Assembly: GCF_963921235.1 (NCBI RefSeq)
Contig: NC_086097.1
Location: 135,596,001 to 135,660,000, forward strand
DNA: 64,000 nt
Direction: 5' to 3'
Source of the DNA: Mobula hypostoma
Lineage: Eukaryota
The first letter of the stretch is position 1. Each line of letters starts with the position of its first letter. Position numbers and translations under genes: made by a program. The notes under the pieces were generated by a model. That model searched no databases, was not told where the DNA came from, and was given only the letters and a program-made list of their open reading frames with translations. Below, one piece after another: positions 2,973 through 57,905 of the stretch.

Positions 2973-3437
2973 AACACACACACACAAAATGCTGGAGGAA
3001 CTCAGCAGGCCAGGCAGCATCCATGGAAAAGGGTAGAGTTGACGTTTCAGGCAGAGACCCTTCAGCAGGACTGGAGGGAAAAAAGATGAGGAGCAGAGTT
3101 AAAAGGTAGGGGGAGGAGAGGGAGAAACACAAGGTGATAGGTGAAACCAGGAGGGGGAGGGGTGAAGTAAAGAGCTGGGAAGTTGGTTGGTGGAAGAGAC
3201 ACAGGGCTGGAGAAGGGGGAGTCTGATAGGAGAGGACAGAAGGCCATGGAAGAAAGAAGAGTCGGGAGGCAATGGGCAGACAAAGAGATAAAGAGGAGAG
3301 GGAAAAGGGGATGGGGAATGATGCAGTGGGGGCCCTCTCACCTTATCTTCTTGCCTGCCCATTGCCTCTCTCTGCTCCTCCTCCCTTTTCTTTCTTCCAC
3401 GGCCTTCTGTCCTCTCCTATCAGACTCGCCCTTCTCT
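2973..3437 (-). mobile_element. Penelope-like element 3' region with an inverted partial copy
   Basis: 2975-3320 is the reverse complement of the PLE tail seen at 57520-57860. 3335-3437 is the same sequence in + orientation, forming an inverted repeat. The hammerhead core is mutated (CTGCTGA). Confidence 0.65.
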
Positions 3438-5196
3438 TGTTTCAAATTGCCTTCTTTGTACCATTCTAATGTTCTGCACTTGTCGTTGTGCTTGTTGTTG
3501 TATTTATTGTTGCCACGTATACCATTACTCTGTGAGCTTCATGTGAACAAGGAATTTCATTGCACTCTGGTCTTATGTGACAATAAACTAATCTAATCTA
3601 ATATATTTAACAATGGAATCAAGCACACTCAGATTTCGATTAAAAATTGCCTCAACTCCATTTGATTCGAAATGGGGGTGGGGGGAATGTGTCCAAGGTC
3701 AGTCCTGCAATTTTCATCCCTCTGTTTGCTCTGCCTCTTTCTCCCCTTCTTATCCCACATCAAGAGGTATATGCCACATATATACAATGGAGCAGGATAA
3801 AGGCCAAGGAACCTTCTAAAGGCTCAATCAAAGCAATCTGCTCTGAGGTACCATGTAGGAGCCGGTGAGGTGATTTAGTATTTAATTACTAACTAGGCCC
3901 AGACGGGATAACACTCAGAAGTTAAAGCTTTGAAGTGGCAAGGGCCAAATGAGGATGGTGACTTCTGATGGAGAATATTCATCTCATCCTTGAAGTCAGG
4001 GTGTTTGGGTTTACGGGTTGGAGTTTCACCACAATTCCAGATGCAAGGTGATGGAAAGAATTGCAAGCAGACACCCACCCCCCCCAAAGAAAAGTTACAG
4101 ATTTTACCTTGGGAATGGCAGTATCTAGCAATACAAGTTTAAAAACATTTTCCGTAGTAGCTACAATTTAACCAATTAGTGGATCTTTAGTGATAGTGCT
4201 TACTGTTCAGAGTCATGAAATTAAGATAAGGACAGAGAACCTACGGTTACTTCTAATGATATTGAAAGGTATAATCTTTGTTCACTGAAACATCAGCCTC
4301 TTCTGCAGTCTGTGATGAATCATGAGAAAAGCAATCATGAGAAAAACAAAAAGAAATAAATTAAAATGTTAAGAACTTGCTTATGGGGACAGCCCATCAA
4401 CTTTGTTTTTACAAAATTAACTAATTTATTTTACAGCAATTAGATGGATGTGACTCATAGACCATATTTTACATATGTACAGTCATTGCATTTGTACAAC
4501 AATGTCTGGAGCAGTTTGTGAATAAACCACTTGCATCTGGTTCAGCAGGAGACCTCTGCTTGACAACTGCTTGCCAAATTTCTGACATCAGTAGTCATAT
4601 TCTGCATTACTGAGTGGGTTGAGAGAAAACTGTTGCCTTCAACATTATGTTACCTCATTCATGACCTACCATGCAAGGCGAATTGGTTCTCACCAGTCTA
4701 CACGGACATGGGCGGTTCCAAATAGGATCTGATTGGGACAGATGCCCATTTAAGGAGTGGCTGACAAACCTCTTCCGTGAAAGTGGTAACCCATCAAATA
4801 GCAGACCACTTAATCACATCACTTCCTCAAGATATTCTTGAAATAAGTTTCCTGTCTGCAAACCCTAAGCAGTGACTCAAAGATCTCGGAATCATTTTAT
4901 GAATGTTGTTCCATCCATAAGAAAAGAATCATTGTCATAGAGAGATATAGCACAGAAATAGGCTCTTCAGCCTGATGAGACTATTCTAATCAACCACTAA
5001 GCACATCTTTCCCTCCCCCCCCCTCTCTGCATTCCGCAGGGATCGCTCCCTACGCAACTCACTTGTCCATTCGTCCCCCCCATCCCTCCCCACTGATCTC
5101 CCTCCTGGCACTTATCCGTGTAAGCAGAACAAGTGCTACACATGCCCTTACACTTCCTCCCTTACCACCATTCAGGGCCCCAAACAGTCCTTCCAG

Positions 5197-5523
5197 GTGA
5201 GGCATCACTTCACCTGTGAGTCGACTGGGGTGATATACTGCGTCCGGTGCTCCCGATGTGGCCTTTTATATATTGGTGAGACCCGACGCAGACTGGGAGA
5301 CCGCTTTACTGAACATCTACGCTCTGTCCGCCAGAGAAAGCAGGATCTCCCAGTGGCCACACATTTTAATTCCACATCCCATTCCCATTCTGACATGTCT
5401 ATCCACGGTCTCCTCTACTGTAAAGATGAAGCCACACTCAGGTTGGAGGAACAACACCTTATATTCCGTCTGGGTAGCCTCCAACCTGATGGCATGAGCA
5501 TCGACTTCTCTAACTTCCGCTAA
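5197..5523 (+). pseudogene. PLE GIY-YIG endonuclease domain (C-terminal end of PLE ORF)
   Basis: FTCESTGVIYCVRCSRCGLLYIGETRRRLGDRFTEH...PVATHFN...EEQHLIFRLGSLQPDGM: VIY/YIG motifs with the intervening CxxC typical of PLE endonucleases. No RT upstream. Confidence 0.85.
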
Positions 5524-5820
5524 GGCCCCACCTCCCCCTCGTACCCCATCTGTTACTCATTTTTATGCACACATTCTTTCTCTCACTCTCCTTTTTCTCC
5601 CTCTGTCCCTCTGAATATACCTCTTGCCCATCCTCTGGGTCACCCCCCCTCCTTGTCTTTCTTCCCGGACCTCCTGTCCCATGATCCTCTCGTATCCCCT
5701 TTTGCCTATCACCTGTCCAGCTCTTGGCTCTATCCCTCCCCCTCCTGTCTTCTCCTATCATTTTGCATCTCCCCCTCCCCCTCCAGCTTTCAAATCCCTT
5801 ACTCACTCTTCCTTCAGTTA

Positions 5821-5854
5821 GTCCTGACGAAGGGTCTCGGCCTGAAACGTCGAC
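5821..5854 (+). ncRNA. Minimal type I hammerhead ribozyme motif in PLE 3' repeat
   Basis: GTC-CTGACGA-AGG(GTCTCGG)CCT-GAAA-C-GTC^GAC. Has the CUGANGA and GAAA core, stem II AGG/CCT, stem I (A)GTC/GAC(T), a GUC cleavage triplet and a loop-less palindromic stem III (ACGT). Confidence 0.75.
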
Positions 5855-6588
5855 TGCGCCTCTTCCTATAGATGCTGCTTGGCCTGCTGCGTTCACCAGC
5901 AACTTTGATGTATGTTGCTTGAATTTCCAGCATCTGCAGAATTCCTGTTGTTTGCATTCTAATCAACTGCCTATTTACACTAATCCTATATATATCCTAT
6001 TTTAACAACCAATTGGTTTATCTACATCAGCGGTCCCCAACCACCGGGCCGTGAACCGGTACCGGGCCGCAAAGCACGTGCTACCGGGCCATGAAGACAC
6101 GATATGAGTCAGCTGCACCTTTCCTCATTCCCTGTTGAACTTGAACATAGAGTTGCCAACTGTACCCTATTTGCCAGGACATCCCGTATATTGAGCTAAA
6201 TTGGTTTGTCCTGTATTTCCCCTGCTAAGGTAGAGCGTTCCTATGAAACCTATCGTGCCAAAATGCTGTGAAGTGAAGAAGCAATTACCATAAATTTATA
6301 TGGGAAAATTTTTTGAACGTTCCCAGAAAATAACCTAACAAATCATACCAAATAACACATAAAACCGAAAGTAAATAACACTAACATATAGTAAAAGCAG
6401 GAATGATATGATAACACACAGCCTATATAAAGTAGAAATAATGTATGGAAAGTATAGTCGGGAAGAGGAAGGCAAAACCGATTTGTGGGAAAAAATTCGG
6501 CACGTATGCGCATGCGCACACAGGTGCTCGCACAAGGCTTCATGGTCATGGTAGTCTTTCCGGGGGTAAAGTGTCCCGGGATTTGACT

Positions 6589-6767
6589 CCAACAGTCTGG
6601 TGAACGCAGCAGGCCAGGCAGCATCTCTAGGAAGAGGTACAGTCGACGTTTCAGGCCGAGACCCTTCGTCAGGACTGTCGACGTTTCAGGCCGAGACCCT
6701 TCGTCAGGACTTGTCGACGTTTCAGGCCGAGACCCTTCGTCAGGACCATCAACTTTTATGTGTGTTG
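6589..6767 (-). mobile_element. Short Penelope-derived insertion carrying three tandem hammerhead motifs
   Basis: 13-bp direct repeat ccgggatttgact at 6576-6588 and 6768-6780. Contents match the PLE tail at 5821-5915. Confidence 0.85.
6642..6746 (-). ncRNA. Tandem triplet of identical 34-nt minimal hammerhead ribozyme motifs
   Basis: gtcgacgtttcaggccgagacccttcgtcaggac at 6642-6675, 6677-6710 and 6713-6746. The reverse complement equals the motif at 5821-5854. Confidence 0.75.
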
Positions 6768-7479
6768 CCGGGATTTGACTGCTACTTTTGTCCCTTGTTT
6801 GGGGGTGAGAAAGTTGGCAACCCGAACTGTAAAAGACATGTTGAGGTGAGTTTAACCCTACTCGAACAACTCCCCCCGCCCCACCCCACAGTCGGCTGGT
6901 CCACAAGAATATTGTCAATACTAAACCGGTCCGCGGGCCAAAAAAGGTTGGGGACCCCTGATCTACATGCTCGTCTTTGGGATGTGGTGTAATAAATTTT
7001 GTAAAAATACAGGATGAAAGTCTGAAAATTCCAAGTGATACTGTGAGCTCACAGCATGTAAGGTGGTTGTATAAGTTAAATGCTATAGATTTGTCAAATG
7101 TTTGCTCAGAGCAGCTGGATTCTTTCTTGGCCTCAGGCACAGTGGCATGAAAACAAAAGACCAAATGGTTTGTCTCTGTGTGTCTCGCTGTGCTTGTGGA
7201 TTGAATCCCTACTTATTGAGGCACCTTTCACTCAGTTCTTGGGACTTCACTTAGACCAAGGAATCAGGGTGATTTCACAAGTTAGAATTTGGAGTTCCGT
7301 TGACAACAGCAACGATCAAGACCCCTGACAACAGCAACAATCAAGTGGAGCTCTGAAAGCTTTGTAACTTACTACAAAGTATTTAATGTGGTTTATTTGT
7401 GCCTTCTGTTTTATGCTAACAAATTAGACTTAACATGGTTTGTTATGTATTTATTTCCACATCTCCTGAACACTTGAAT

Positions 7480-18471: not shown

Positions 18472-18688
18472 ACACCAAAGTTGCTGGTGAATGCAGCAGG
18501 TCAGGCAGCATCTCTAGGAAGAGGTGCAGTCGACGTTTCAGGCCGAGACCCTCTGTCCTGACGAAGGGTCTCGGCCTGAAACGTCAACTGTACCTCTTCC
18601 TAGAGATGCTGCCTGACCTGCTGCGTTCACCAGCAACTTTGATGTGTGTTGCTTGAATTTCCAGCATCTGCAGAATTCCTCGTGTTTG
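18472..18688 (+). mobile_element. Penelope pseudo-LTR insertion forming a ~80-bp hairpin, with a hammerhead motif
   Basis: 18471-18552 is the reverse complement of 18565-18646. Hammerhead at 18555-18588. Flanking repeat ctatgactataac (18459-18471, 18689-18701). Confidence 0.85.
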
Positions 18689-19509
18689 CTATGACTATAA
18701 CTATGACTATGACTATTATAATTATTATTTTCTTTTTTTGTATTTGCAATTTGTTGTCTTTTAAACACTTGTTGTCTGCCCTGCAGGTGTGGTCTTTTGT
18801 TGATTCTATTATGGTTATTGGATTTCTTGAGTATGCCCACAAGAAAGTGGATATCAGGGTTGTATATGGTGACATATATATACTTTGATATTAAATTTAC
18901 TTTGAACTTTGTATGCTGAATAATAAAAGGAGGTGATGGGTAGGTGAGGAGAAGAGAAGGGGCAAGGGGGAAACAGAATGGGAAATAGAAAAGGAGGGAA
19001 GGAGGAGGGGATGAATGAACTGGAAGTTAGTAATATTGATGCTCATGCTATCAGCTTGGAGATTATGAGATGTTGCTCCTCCATCTTGAGTGTGGCCTCA
19101 TTATGGCTGATCTCTCGCATGTGCAGAATCTCTTGTGTTTGTTATGCAAATCTGTTGAAACTTGTCAGAGTTTTGGTAACTTTATTACTGATTCACATGG
19201 GCTGTGGTGTCGTAATATGGAATTTGAGGATCCAGTTCCAGAGGGAGGTGCAGAGGCCAAGGTTTAGAAGCTTGCTGATTAATTCTGAGGATATGATGAT
19301 GTTGAATGCTGACCTGTGATTATTTACATATAGTCTGACATCAGTGTAAGGAAAATGCTGGGATTTATTTGGGAAATAGCCAAGGTTCATTGGGACAGTA
19401 ATAAGATCGAGCAAAGTCAAAATTGAATAATGAAAAGAAAAATCATGTGACAAACTAGTTCAAGAGATTTGATGTAAACTAGGGTAATCCAGTGGATGTG
19501 GTGCTTTTG

Positions 19510-26990: not shown

Positions 26991-27789
26991 GTGCCTGACT
27001 CTGTGCTACCAGGTTCAGACTATCTCATTTAGCATGATGGTGGTGCGACACAACACAACAGAGGGTGTTGTCACACTTTCCTCTGGTCCGTGACACCACC
27101 AGTGACAATCAGGCCATTTTCCCTGGAATTTATCCTTCCAGCTCCCAGTTCCCCGGCCAGCTCAACTCACTTCTGTTTTTGCTCCATTGATCCTGGTACC
27201 CTTTAATGTAAAATAGTGTTTCGCCCATTCACCTTGATGTAGATGTTAATGGTCCACATACCAACGTAGCTCTCTGCTGTTTCTAGAGACCTTGAGGCTC
27301 TCTAGGGATGCTTCCAGTCACCTCCTGATCAGTCCTCATGCTTAAATTGATAAATTTATGTGGCTTAAATATTGAAGGATTGTCATAGAACTTTAGATTT
27401 TGCAGTTTTTTCCCAGCTCTCCTCTCCTCTCCTCTCAATGACACCAGGAACACAAAAGGAGATGTCCAGAACATTGGCAAACCAGAGGACATTGGTTTAG
27501 GTGAGAAGGGAAAGGGACCTGAAAGGCAACAAAGGGTCATACGTATATCAGATGAGTTGCCAGAGGAAGTGGTAGAGGTGGGTAAAGTTATCATGTTTGA
27601 AAGTTATTTAGACAGGTTCATGGTTAGGAAATGGTTGGAGGGATTTGGGCCAAATGCAGGCACGTAGGACTAGATGAAGGGTGTCAACCTGAAAGGTTGA
27701 CTGCCTATTTCCCTCCACAGATGCTGCCTGACCTGCTGAGTTCCTTCTGCATTTGCGTGTTGCCCTGAATAGGACTAGTCCAGGTATTG

Positions 27790-37730: not shown

Positions 37731-39015
37731 CAACACCTGACAGACAGTCAGCCATCACATTTTCTGTTCCTTTTATATGTGTTATTAATAATCCCTTAGA
37801 CCAGGCTCCAACTTAGCAAACTTCATAGTGGCCAAAAACACTGATGAATTGCGATCAATGTAACCTCTCCTTGGGTTTCGTCCCGGACCACAATAACAAG
37901 GGTCGTCCCATTCCGACTTAGTTTTCTCTCGCAAGGGCTTAGTAGGAGGGGGAGGGGTAGTAACCGCAGAGTTATTGCAAAACTTCCTACAGTACCCCAC
38001 CATCTCCAAGAGCCTTCTGAGGGCCCTCTTGTCTGTCGGGGTTGGGATGTCAAAGATAGCCCGCATTTTAGCTTGCATCGCTGCCAGCTGCCCCTGTGTC
38101 ACTACAATTCCCAGGTAAGTGACCTTCGTGTGGCCGAACTCATTTTTTTCAAGGCTCACTATCAAGCTGGCTTCAGACAGCCGTATTACATCGCCAATAC
38201 ACACCTCTGTGTTCGTCAGCCCTTTAGTCACTGAATTACTCATTCTATATGGATGTTGCTCACTAGGCTGATGTAGTGTAACAAGCACCAGCCAACGTCC
38301 CAGCTCTTTACATCGCCTCGGGACAATCAAACACACGTGTGCGAGTTGTTTAATTACTTCTCCTAAAGAGTCGCTTTGTTCGGGGATTAAGGGAGAGACC
38401 TTATCAGCAGAGCTGGCCAAAACAATAGCCTTCTCCCATCTGGTCGATACCATACTCATCTTTTCAAAATGGTTTTTTTCTCTTATCAGGGGGACCCTAG
38501 CTTCATTGATTTCCACGCTAACACCGACTAGGTTTGTTAGCATATCAAAAGCCTGTGACCGTCTCAGTTCGCGTCGGCCATAATCAATAACATCCTTCCT
38601 CCTGGGCAGCCGGTAAACCTCTTTCATGATTCCACCAACTGTTCCCACCAGCACCGCAAAATGTCCACCGGGGGGTACCTTGTGGGTCAGGTTAAAAACC
38701 TCATCCCCATAACTCTTTTGCACCACCCCCCATTCCTCATCTGCGGGTACGGTACTTGGTTTCCCTTTCTTCCTTAGCACTTCCTCCTCCACACAATAGC
38801 CTACTGGTTCCCTTGTTAATTCTGTGTCAGAGAGAGCTGTCTCCGCCAAAACCATCAGCCCCTTGTCTCGCTCCTGTGCCTGCACAAATTCTTTCCTGGC
38901 TAATGCTACGTCTGTCTCAGCTCCCTCACTACCTCTTGTTTCACTACACTCCTTCTTTTCATTTTCTACCCCCGTCTCGTACAAGACTGGCAGAAACGTC
39001 TCAGCTAAATTTACT
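37731..39015 (-). pseudogene. Condensed pol remnant (integrase Zn-finger region, RT N-terminus and thumb, RNase H end)
   Basis: FVQAQERDKGL; LTHKVPPGGHFAV...KDVIDY; QHPYRM; CIGDV..RLSEASLIVSLEKNEFGHTKVTYLG...LRRLLEMVGYCRKFC; and, after a frameshift, ITHIKGTENVMADCLS. Confidence 0.85.
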
Positions 39016-40684
39016 ACCGCAGTCCCTGATGAACTTGTGAGTCCATGGGCGGGACCTCAATGCTGGCAGGCTGACCTGTCAATCTCACTGCTGGGAACAC
39101 GATTCCCCCGGCGAGGTCATTACCGAGCAAGTCTTCCACGCCTTTTATCGGTAATTCGGACCTCACCCCGATCGTGACTAGTCCAGAGACCAGGTTGCTT
39201 TGTAAGTGTATCTGGTGCAAAGGGATTGCCTCTGTCCCTTCCCCAATACCTTTGACCTTGACCTCCCCAGTCTGGGTCTCTGAGCTAAACTCTAATACAC
39301 TCTTTAGTATCAGTGACTGACACGCTCCCGTGTCTCTCCAGATCCGCACTGGAACTGGTTTTAACCCCTCCTTCACCGACACCAATCCGGCCGAGATAAA
39401 CCTCTCACGCCCTTCCTGAACTTTGGCAGACCTGTCCTGTCCTAGCGGTTCGTTTACCAGCTCGATACAGCCAGTCAAAATTGCCGTTTTTCCTTTTCCT
39501 GTCTCCTTCTTTGGGGCAAAGCACCTGGACGCAAAGCGTCCGACTTTCCCGCAATTATAACAGACGACCTCAGGAGACTTCCAACCAGACTGCTCCCAGT
39601 CTACCTTATCCTTCTCACTAGTCCCCGGCTTACTTTCTGACTTTTCTGGTGGACTCTCCCCGCCGTCCTGACTACCCTTCTGGTAGCCTTTACTCGGGGC
39701 AAACTTCATTTTATGCGTCAATGCATACTCATCCGCTAACTTAGCAGTTGCGGCTAACGTGGCTGCCTCTTTCTCATCTAGGTAGGGTCTCATACCCTCA
39801 GGGACACAACCTTTAAACTGCTCAATCAGGATCAGCTGTAACAGTCTGTGATAATCCCCCTCTACCCCCTTCAAGGCGCACCAACGCTCACAATATGTCT
39901 GCATCTCACAGGCAAACTCTAAATATGTGCGGTCCCACTGCTTCCTCGCATTCCGGAACCTCTGCTGGTATGCCTCCGGGACCAACTCATAAATCCTGAG
40001 GATGGCCTCTTTCACCACCTCGTACCTCTGGGCATCTTCCGCGGACAAAGCTGAGTAAGCTTGTTGGGCTTTCCCTTTCAGTACACTCTGAAGCAAAACA
40101 GCTCACTTATCCCTCGGCCAGTCCTGACTTGTAGCAACTTTTTCGAAATGGAGAAAGTACCGATCCGCGTCGGTATCGTCAAATGGGGGAACCAGCCTAA
40201 CCTCCTGGGTTGCCCGGAACCCTCCACCTTGGTTCGGCACGGGCCGCTGCTCTGCCCTTATCCTTAACTTCTCCAGCTCGAATTCCCTTTCCCTCTGTTT
40301 CTCCTCTCGCTCCAACTGTCTCTCTCTCTCTCTCTCTCTCCTGCCTTTCTAACTCTTTCTCTTTCTTTTGCCTTTCTAACTCTCTCTCCTTCTCTTCTCG
40401 CTCCAACTGCCGTACCCGGAACTCGTGCTCGAGTCTCAGTTTTCAAGCTGCACCTGTACCGCGTCCCCGGCAGGTTTTTCAATAGACACCACCTCCAGCT
40501 CGCCTTGGGGAAACACACCTTTAGATACATAGTGCTCTACGATAGCCCTGTGTATCTCCTCTCTCCTCATTGTTGACTTCCCCTTAGCAAGAGCCAACCG
40601 TTTGGCCACAGCTACCAATTCCGATTTCCTGGCATCCTCTAATGCCTCCAAGGTCGGCGCCTTTATAATTTCCTCAGCCTCCAT
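39014..40684 (-). pseudogene. gag (coiled coil, SCAN-related capsid, zinc knuckle) plus aspartic protease; frameshifts and one stop
   Basis: LVPPFDDTDADRYFLHFEKVA...W; AILRIYELVPEAYQQRFR; LILIEQF; CYNCGKVGRFASRC; IWRDTGACQSLI; LLGNDL. Confidence 0.9.
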
Positions 40685-50599: not shown

Positions 50600-51575
50600 G
50601 AAAACACCAGTCAGCACAACCACTCTGTGAGGATGCATTCTCAGCCCCCGCTCTATTCCTAGTACACTCATGACTGCACAGCCCGATTCTGCTCCAACTA
50701 CATCTACAAGTTTGCAGATGATACTGTGGTGGGCATCTACATCTCAAATAACAATATGTCAGAGTAAGGAAGGAGGTAGAGAGAGAGAGATCAGTGACAT
50801 GGTTTCATGACAACAACCTTTTCCTTAATGTCAATAAAAGAGTTGGGCGTTGACCAGAAAGTGGGATGGTGTGCACTATCTCCTCTCTACATCAACAGTC
50901 TGAGAGGACTGATATCATGGTCAAGAAATCTAAACAATGCCTCTATTTCCTCAGGAGGTTAGGGAAATTCGGCATGACCCTGTTGACTTTTGGCAATTTT
51001 TATCGATGCACCACAGGAAGCATTCTGTCTGAATGCATCACAGCTTAGCATGGCAACTGATCCGCACGTGACCACAAGAAACTGCAGAGTTGTGGCCATG
51101 GCTCAGTACATCACAGGAACAAGCCTCCCCTCCATGACTTTGTCAATACTTCTCACTACCTCAGTAAAGCAGCCAGCATAATGAAAGACCCCACCCACCC
51201 TGGACATCCTCTCTTCTCAGGTAGGGCAGAAGATACAAAAGCCTGAAAGCATGCACTACCAGGCTGTGGGACAGCTTCTATCCCACTGTCATTAGGTTTC
51301 TGAATGGATCTCTTGTATGATAACAACACACATCAAAGTTGCTGGTGAACGCAGCAGGCCAAGCAGCATCTGTAGGAAGAGGCGCAGTCGACGTTTCTTG
51401 TATGATAAGATGGACTCTTGGCCTCAAATTCTACCTCATTATGACCTTGCACTCTATTGTTTACCTGGACTGCTCTTTTTAACACTTTATTTCTCATTGT
51501 TTAATCTGGCTCAATGCATGGTGTAATGATTTTATCTATATCAATAGTTTGCAAGACAAGTTTTTCCACTGTATT
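50600..51575 (+). mobile_element. Decayed Rex1/Babar LINE 3' part
   Basis: catctacaagtttgcagatgatac (YKFADD); QCLYFLRRLGKFGM...NFYRCTTGSILSECITA. Confidence 0.75.
51324..51395 (-). mobile_element. 72-bp Penelope tail insertion truncated inside the hammerhead motif
   Basis: 13-bp TSD tcttgtatgataa (51311-51323, 51396-51408). Matches the reverse complement of ~5846-5917. Confidence 0.85.
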
Positions 51576-56969: not shown

Positions 56970-57905
56970 GGTAATGGAGTCCAAACACGTCTTTCCCTCT
57001 CCCCTACTTTCTGCTTTCCACAAGGATCGCTCCCTTTGCGACTCCCTTGTCCATTCGCCCCTCCCCACTGATTTCTCTCCTGGCACTTACCCTTGCAAGC
57101 GAGACGAGTGCTACACCTGCCCCTACACCTCCTCCCTCACTACCATTCATGGCCCCAAACAGTCCTTCCACGTGAGGCGACACTTCACCTGTGAGTCTGT
57201 TGGGGTCATCTACTGATTCCAATGCTCCTAGTGCGGCCTCTGGTGTATTGGTGAAGCCTGATGCAGATTGGGAGACCGCTTTGTTGAGCACCTGCGCTCC
57301 ATCTGCCAGAAAAAGTGGGATCTCCCAGTGGCCATCCATTTTAATTCCACTTCCCATTCCCATTCTGACATACTGTATCAGCCTATGGCTTCCTCTACTG
57401 TTGTGACGAGGCCACACTGGGATTGGAGGAGCAATACCTTATATTCTCGGATAAGCCTCCAACCTGATGGCATGAACATCGATTTCTCAAACTTCTGGTA
57501 ATGCCTCCACCCTCTCCTTCACCATTCCCCACTCTCACCTTATCTCCTTATCTGCCCACTACCTCCGTCTGGTGCTCCTCCCCCCTTTTCTTTCTTCCAT
57601 GGCCTTCTATCCTCTCCTATTAGATTCCCCCTTCTCCAGCCCCATATCTCTTTCACCAATCAACTTTCCAGCTCTTTATTTTACCCCTTCCCCCAAACTC
57701 CTGATTTCACCTATCACCTTGTGGTTCTTCCTCCCCTCCTCCACTTTCTTACTCCTCATCTTTTTTCCCAGTCCTGATGAAGGGTCTCGGCCCAAAACGG
57801 CGACTGTACTTTTTTCCATAGCTGCTGCCTGGCCTGCTGAGTTCCTCCAGCATTTTGTTTAGTGTTGCTTTGGATTTCCAGCATCTACAGATTTTCTCTT
57901 GTTTG
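56970..57905 (+). mobile_element. Older 5'-truncated Penelope-like element
   Basis: Colinear with 5005-5520 (FTCESVGVIY*, LGDRFVEHLRS, PVAIHFN). Mutated hammerhead gtcctgatgaagggtctcggcccaaaacggcgac at 57771. Confidence 0.85.

Follow-up and report, generated by a model that had tools for sequence, protein, structure and literature searches.

Three identical 34-nt hammerhead ribozyme units lie almost end to end within the 64,000-nucleotide stretch of DNA analysed here (the window), and the question raised by this locus is how they came to be there. An initial annotation offered three options: a functional self-cleaving cassette, a copy of a tiny circular ribozyme RNA, or the footprint of template jumps by a reverse transcriptase (RT).

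The hammerhead triplet and its insert

The exact triplet, with spacers of 1 nt and 2 nt, was confirmed in position and identity, and TRF gave a period of 36 and 2.9 copies over it. In minus-strand orientation, a unit opens with the 5' strand of stem I and closes with its 3' strand, and it contains the boxes CUGACGA and GAAA, the cut triplet GUC and an ACGU palindrome; as first described, the unit edges are those of stem I, and each unit is one minimal Penelope-type hammerhead without loop III. Features of a minimal type I hammerhead found in the unit are CUGANGA, GAAA, a UH cut site, palindromic 15.2-16.2 and the lack of loop III. Stem II can also be drawn in an alternative register, 4 bp after an unpaired A, which is that of published minimal hammerheads; the energies of the two registers are nearly equal, the unpaired A after position 9 fits, and the 10.1-11.1 pair is G-U in the triplet and G-C in 34 of 221 arms. 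Rfam gave no match at the gathering score in the whole 64-kb window. The 34-mer occurs in 36,060 exact copies in the 3.48-Gb genome (G000), with none for a reversed-sequence control; because so many exact copies exist, the identity of three young copies requires no selection.

The insert that carries the triplet is 179 bp long (6589-6767). It is flanked by a 13-bp target duplication, includes an inverted arm and skips part of the element internally; it contains no ORF and shows no sign of selection. Its parts, the enclosing host element and a reference copy are as follows, with element (+) positions counted from the hammerhead's first G.

4990-5956, plus strand: separate 5'-truncated copy used as reference, with the end of the GIY-YIG ORF, 3' UTR, hammerhead (5821-5854) and tail
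6028-6960: short, DNA-transposon-like host element, presumably hAT-like, with terminal inverted repeats and an 8-bp target duplication, enclosing the 179-bp insert
6576-6588: target-site duplication, left copy, 13 bp, perfect, identical to 6768-6780
6589-6596, minus strand: 8-nt end piece, of which 6 nt match element +124 to +129, a match that is weak taken alone
6597-6641, minus strand: element +34 to +78, downstream of the hammerhead, 41/45 identical to the copy at 5855-5899
6642-6675, minus strand: hammerhead unit 3, native copy, predicted cut between 6645 and 6644
6676, minus strand: spacer A, same as the native base at -1
6677-6710, minus strand: hammerhead unit 2, putative first re-entry
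6711-6712, minus strand: spacer AA, the native -1 base plus one untemplated base
6713-6746, minus strand: hammerhead unit 1, putative second re-entry, its 5' edge being the first G
6747-6767, plus strand: inverted arm, 21 nt, element +76 to +96, ending at the short-tail priming site
6768-6780: target-site duplication, right copy, its junction covered by an exact contig (run X2)

The four mismatches between 6597-6641 and 5855-5899 fall at subfamily marker sites. The end piece at 6589-6596 probably marks priming at the long-tail site, after which copying would have skipped to +78; this assignment is supported by its fit to the rule of one short and one long arm described below.

The Penelope-like family and its tandem hammerheads

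The ORF of the reference copy matched PF01541 (GIY-YIG) at window positions 4990-5520 (E 6.9e-05, above the Pfam cut-off), and PF00078 (RT) was matched in two other copies, L287 and L278 (E 5.7e-06 and 8.7e-05, both below the Pfam cut-off). A CX4CxxC linker is present in the ORF at 4990-5523; a CX2-5CxxC linker before the endonuclease is reported to be absent in Penelope/Poseidon (PMC8557442). Judged by its sequence features, the family is a Penelope-like element (PLE) with a C-terminal endonuclease, of Neptune/Nematis type by this linker rule. It combines RT and C-terminal GIY-YIG domains with partial tandems bearing hammerhead pseudo-LTRs, inverted arms, a one-sided tail and target duplication. 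In one partial-tandem element (L340; G000:C1:16,879,000-16,888,999, minus strand) the hammerheads lie 3,513 nt apart, and its 3' end is abutted by a second small inverted insertion. No full-length copy was present among the 20 long copies fetched.

Element 3' ends and arm ends cluster near +95-100 and +130-135. The upstream hammerhead of L340 continues past +135 into the ORF, and since its RNA would do likewise, these tail ends are best read as internal priming sites. Every inverted (head-to-head) pair at the fetched loci, 69 of 69, has one arm ending at +80 to +105 and the other at +125 to +135, and paired arms differ at 8% of subfamily marker sites versus 43% in shuffles. These data suggest that each insertion draws on a single source RNA and uses each of the two priming sites once. 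Two internal priming sites have been shown in vitro for another PLE, PAc, with uncut RNA as the dominant substrate (PMC11167929), and endonuclease-positive PLE insertions are described with 5' truncation, an inverted arm and a one-sided 30-40-bp tail (PMC8557442, PMC3846280). The arms of the 179-bp insert obey the same two-site rule as the 69 pairs and PAc. Other copies of the family in the window include a head-to-head pair at 18472-18689 that turns inside the hammerhead, and copies at 2990-3178, 27673-27743, 51324-51397 and 57276-57905. Separately, two long ORFs lie on the minus strand at 37785-40102; we take them to be gag/protease and RT-region pieces of an LTR retroelement.

A genome-wide search for tandem copies showed that the triplet is not unique. 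Exact hammerhead-to-hammerhead junctions with 0-4-nt spacers numbered 30, at 29 loci, the AA spacer being one of the 30. A survey unbiased to whole units gave 138 matches, of which the 100 listed resolve into 65 loci; every count over these loci, here and below, is among the matches listed. The donor edge, where the downstream unit starts, fell at -2 to +1 in 46 of the 65, at -5 to -3 in 10 and further upstream in 9. The acceptor edge, where the upstream unit ends, was variable by script parse: +38 in 24 loci, +34 to +39 in 31 and +18 to +33 in 33. Thus the template-jump reading, with a near-fixed edge on one side and a variable edge on the other among the matches listed, proved the best fit of the three proposed. 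The upstream unit ended at the cut site in 2 loci (3 by stricter parse), compared with 4 at +29 and 5 at +30, and stopped before the cut site in 27 of the 65 by script parse, at least two of these being whole units (L034, L210) misparsed as short owing to substitutions. Tandem periods ranged from 20 to 50 nt, with two whole hammerheads in 19 of the 65 loci and an inverted arm in 45 of 64 among the matches listed. Untemplated letters were present in 27 of 65 junctions. Single inserted letters were G in 14 of 19 cases, or 14 of the 17 in which G was possible (8 expected, P 0.003; among the matches listed). A downstream control 12-mer with 113,073 copies gave 22 tandem hits; at the ribozyme the non-satellite junctions number at least 71, an at least threefold enrichment in raw counts in which the copy number of the hammerhead 12-mer does not figure. 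Tandem forms make up a few per thousand element copies at most. Junctions were locus-specific across the 65 loci, and two junctions differ within the triplet, as they do at L015 (among the matches listed).

At least three units were present at 11 loci (65 matches), L015 and L191 being further triples. Four of the 11 arrays consist of whole hammerheads of the triplet's subfamily, one is of another subfamily, five lack the cut site and one keeps only the first box; judged from sequence, the longest arrays are those without a working ribozyme. Junctions within the array were identical at L114, L117, L191 and L213, which fits later growth at the DNA level, a route that would thus exist in this family. 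Arrays of 3-5 units of 40-47 bp with one repeated junction were seen at C5:177,667,634 (L114), C190:365,087 (L213), C45:88,862,892 (L117), C22:156,787,341 (L191) and C96:2,938,340 (L214). In L191 and L213 a stem I of at least 8 bp between units is predicted to be possible, which would make them better test substrates than the triplet. Three larger arrays were also noted: a 43-bp satellite of many dozens of units at C2:10,826,551-10,831,507 (L038-L060; among the matches listed, 100 of 206), whose units come from a related subfamily's hammerhead region, have an altered core box and are probably inactive; a 44-45-bp minisatellite of about 45 units at C67:45,319,292-45,321,457 (L119-L140), covering element -12 to +30 without the cut site; and a 34-bp minisatellite at C67:62,405,228 (L216), which keeps only the first hammerhead box and the following purines.

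Origin of the extra units

The near-fixed edge of the junctions recurs in single copies. Exact copies of the hammerhead fell from 36,060 to 33,195, 30,421, 27,725 and 23,732 as the match was extended upstream from 0 to -1, -2, -5 and -13; the loss was 7.9% and 8.4% at the first two steps versus 3.0% and 1.9% per nucleotide beyond, so that about 4,260 excess single copies begin at the hammerhead's 5' edge (-1/0). Among 107 tail-anchored arms near the start of C1, a count that includes both arms of inverted pairs and whose edges are blurred by microhomology, 24 ended at -10 to +9 (0.015 per nucleotide versus 0.001-0.007 elsewhere). There was no pile-up of ends at the cut site, either in these arms (1 of 107 at +30 to +32) or in the tandem copies among the matches listed. 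Because 24 of 107 arms end at the front edge of the ribozyme and one at the cut, the template would have been mostly uncut, with copying ending at the front edge; cleaved RNA as the main template was rejected on the same count. Which arm reaches further 5' was evenly divided (7 versus 7 in 15 pairs).

Transcription of Penelope starts in the pseudo-LTR (PMC2377424), and copying of a cap by RT adds G (PMC9341517). A search for such a cap-derived G at target junctions was unrewarding: G preceded A(-1) in 841 of 2,774 non-native cases genome-wide (30%, about chance), and a clean target duplication followed by G and the start was present at only 2 of the 24 loci listed out of 30. The bases at -5 and -1 lie in words that we take, from the consensus, to be initiator-like. 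From these words, the pseudo-LTR start and the G-rich inserted letters we infer that the RNA starts at the first bases of the hammerhead, a strong stop of another kind being the alternative. A 3' splice site was rejected as the explanation for the edge: although +1 follows a pyrimidine tract and AG, no constant exon was found before the edge in tandem or single copies.

We consider it likely, from the sequences at hand, that the two extra hammerheads were made during one PLE insertion, by RT run-off and re-entry on the same RNA, twice. Priming would use the two tail sites within the upstream pseudo-LTR; RT would reach the probable 5' end of the RNA at the first bases of the ribozyme, the edge being a transcription start with a capped end, and would then re-enter the same RNA about 34-38 nt back (about 34 nt at the triplet), twice. 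Pairing of stem I, with the RNA 5' end opposite +33/+34, and small homologies may favour re-entry at +34 to +38. A single unit is a quasi-palindrome predicted to fold as a rod (-10.7 kcal/mol) in which the 5' end pairs with +31 to +34. Since re-entry would take place near the foot of this rod, units would often coincide with the ribozyme fold and no selection for cleavage is needed; any self-cleavage would be a side effect. What the sequences show directly is how the insert is built, that 5' ends pile up at -1/0 across the genome, and that junctions with a fixed edge recur. Some points weigh against parts of this reading: the untemplated letter in the triplet is A, not G, contrary to a capped end; the acceptor edges peak at +38 among the matches listed, whereas the triplet re-enters at +34; and the cDNA hairpin is weak. 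Extrusion of such a hairpin (predicted -2.9 kcal/mol) was rejected as too weak a route. Jumps between two RNAs in a trans dimer have little support, given the 8% versus 43% marker difference between arms; 7 of 69 pairs differ at two or more sites, and units of different subfamily type were seen by eye only at the tandem loci L009 and L034. R2 RT requires untemplated letters for template jumping (PMC8857657), telomerase and DRT2 copy one bounded template segment repeatedly (PMC12039810), and PLE RTs are sisters of telomerase RT (PMC8557442); no demonstration of template re-entry by a PLE RT was found in the portions of the literature available.

It is also possible that a single hammerhead was inserted and then duplicated twice at the DNA level, by slippage or unequal exchange on the quasi-palindromic unit, as arrays that repeat one and the same junction, some of them dozens of units long, would allow. 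We regard this as unlikely, however, because the two junctions of the triplet differ by an untemplated base, the units and target duplication are free of mutations, and the edge that is fixed across loci is the hot spot of single-copy 5' ends, which slippage would not favour. An artefact of assembly or consensus, expanding a single or double unit, is the least probable explanation. The check in raw reads that had been proposed was made through contigs and was only partly successful: the outer and 1-nt junctions were matched exactly, but the 2-nt junction, which is unique, was not found among the contig pieces listed. In run X2, among assembled contigs only, an exact 58-nt contig covers 6722-6779, including the outer junction, with no differences; exact 49-50-nt contigs span the 1-nt junction in three of four runs, all of one sample that is possibly the assembly's source, and this junction is common to two other loci, with L029 expected to yield the same contig piece. 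Run X17 yielded contigs assignable only to the family as a whole. No read or contig crosses all three units among the contigs examined, and the unit count of three is that of the assembly alone. Against an artefact stand these exact contigs, the two different junctions, the clean target duplication and the many similar loci.

Rolling-circle copying of a 35-36-nt circular ribozyme RNA, a miniature retrozyme, is very improbable. Arrays in which five whole hammerheads are joined by the same repeated junction (C5:177.67 Mb and C190) and the derivation of retrozymes from pseudo-LTRs (bioRxiv 10.64898/2026.07.22.740005) speak for it, but one circle would give one junction where the triplet has two, its array is continuous with ordinary downstream element sequence, cut-site junctions (2-3 of 65 among the matches listed) do not exceed those at neighbouring positions, and published units measure 51-972 bp or 150-450 bp. 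The suggestion of a tiny circular RNA thus found no support in single or tandem copies. Equally improbable is a selected cis-acting cassette that cuts host or element RNA independently of concentration. The intramolecular double hammerhead proposed between units 1 and 3 can indeed be drawn, as a nested two-core structure with a predicted outer stem I of 6 bp (two G-U pairs) and an inner one of 3 bp; for units 1+2 and 2+3 the inner stem I is predicted to be only 2 bp. The 6-bp stem ACAGUC/GACUGU that had been assigned to the last unit is real, but in the minimum-free-energy fold it closes unit 3 on itself in an inactive rod, and the stem I of the dimer forms between units. Whole units occur in pairs at the 19 loci already noted, and for a minimal hammerhead from schistosomes, engineered constructs of two or three units showed weak cutting where a single unit showed none (PMC4209133). 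Predicted energies, however, place constrained double-hammerhead folds 19.8-22.8 kcal/mol and single-core forms 12.6-18.1 kcal/mol above the ensemble (12.6-25 kcal/mol for active folds overall), although an ordinary trans dimer shows a similar gap, about 19 kcal/mol; with no terms for magnesium, tertiary contacts or protein, the energies count against a cassette that works efficiently by itself, whereas weak cutting, or cutting helped by protein, would be compatible with them. The insert is moreover young, nested in another repeat and not spread, and tandem forms are rare, with about 40% lacking the cut site among the matches listed. A functional cassette is also disfavoured by the units that stop before the cut site, the longest arrays without ribozyme and the absence of a cut-site pile-up (among the matches listed). 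Tandem boundaries unrelated to the ribozyme, which had been named as evidence against it, gave a mixed answer: the boundaries do bear a relation to the ribozyme, although the end point of copying accounts for one of them.

Protein was required for cutting by the PAc hammerhead (PMC11167929). Folding of the full-length context predicts a helix between the pyrimidine run upstream of the hammerhead (window 5806-5836, plus strand) and both the core box and the 5' strand of stem II; an RNA starting at -1 or -5 would be without this blocking helix.

RT run-off and re-entry would make the triplet a real but probably accidental structure, a variant of known PLE insertion forms, and the locus itself a likely dead by-product. 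The junction set is useful: its nucleotide-level footprints record the completion of first-strand synthesis by a Penelope RT, and they suggest that the RNA starts with the first bases of the hammerhead and is uncut when it serves as template. Whether minimal PLE hammerheads can cleave in cis could be addressed with the natural doubles, triples and five-unit arrays, which are ready substrates. More speculatively, and with considerable doubt, Penelope RT may carry out a crude form of repeat addition, in which run-off at a capped end coinciding with stem I is followed by realignment at +34 to +38 on the same RNA; the resulting ribozyme-only arrays of 35-40 nt would be the smallest possible retrozyme seeds, cut in cis and able to grow into minisatellites.

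Comparison with known systems

Literature searches outside subscription journals and preprint supplements turned up no account of hammerhead repeats that abut one another at the 5' end of a PLE. The units resemble the minimal hammerheads of metazoan PLE pseudo-LTRs (PMC4209133) in their type I core without loop III, ACGU palindrome and short helix I, in thousands of solo copies and in predicted dimer activity. In contrast, the tandem pairs described there lie about 3 kb apart, or 100-700 bp apart on opposite strands, and abutting 35-40-nt repeats are not described in the available part of that paper. Two internal priming sites, an inverted arm, target duplication and an uncut template are shared with endonuclease-positive PLE insertions (PMC8557442, PMC3846280, PMC11167929), for which neither a sharp hammerhead 5' edge nor re-copying of 34-38 nt is reported in the available portions of these papers.

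Animal non-LTR retrozymes (PMC7229834; bioRxiv 10.64898/2026.07.22.740005) likewise consist of tandem units derived from pseudo-LTRs, each with a type I hammerhead, and the triplet contains at least two whole units, as the formal rule of the preprint requires. Retrozyme units, however, measure 150-450 bp (51-972 bp in a vertebrate survey) and not 35-36 nt, and retrozymes form a dispersed family sharing one unit, whereas here periods range over 20-50 nt and junctions are locus-specific. By unit size and spread the triplet, known here from its DNA sequence, is not classed as a retrozyme. The junction set shows how a pseudo-LTR can give rise to tandem arrays that carry ribozymes, a path that the available text of the preprint proposes without tracing (bioRxiv 10.64898/2026.07.22.740005). 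With R2 RT the junctions share jumps with untemplated letters (PMC8857657), and with telomerase and DRT2 a re-copied, bounded segment (PMC12039810); unlike the products of these enzymes, the PLE repeats arise rarely and imprecisely, apparently by accident, and lack a fixed alignment region.
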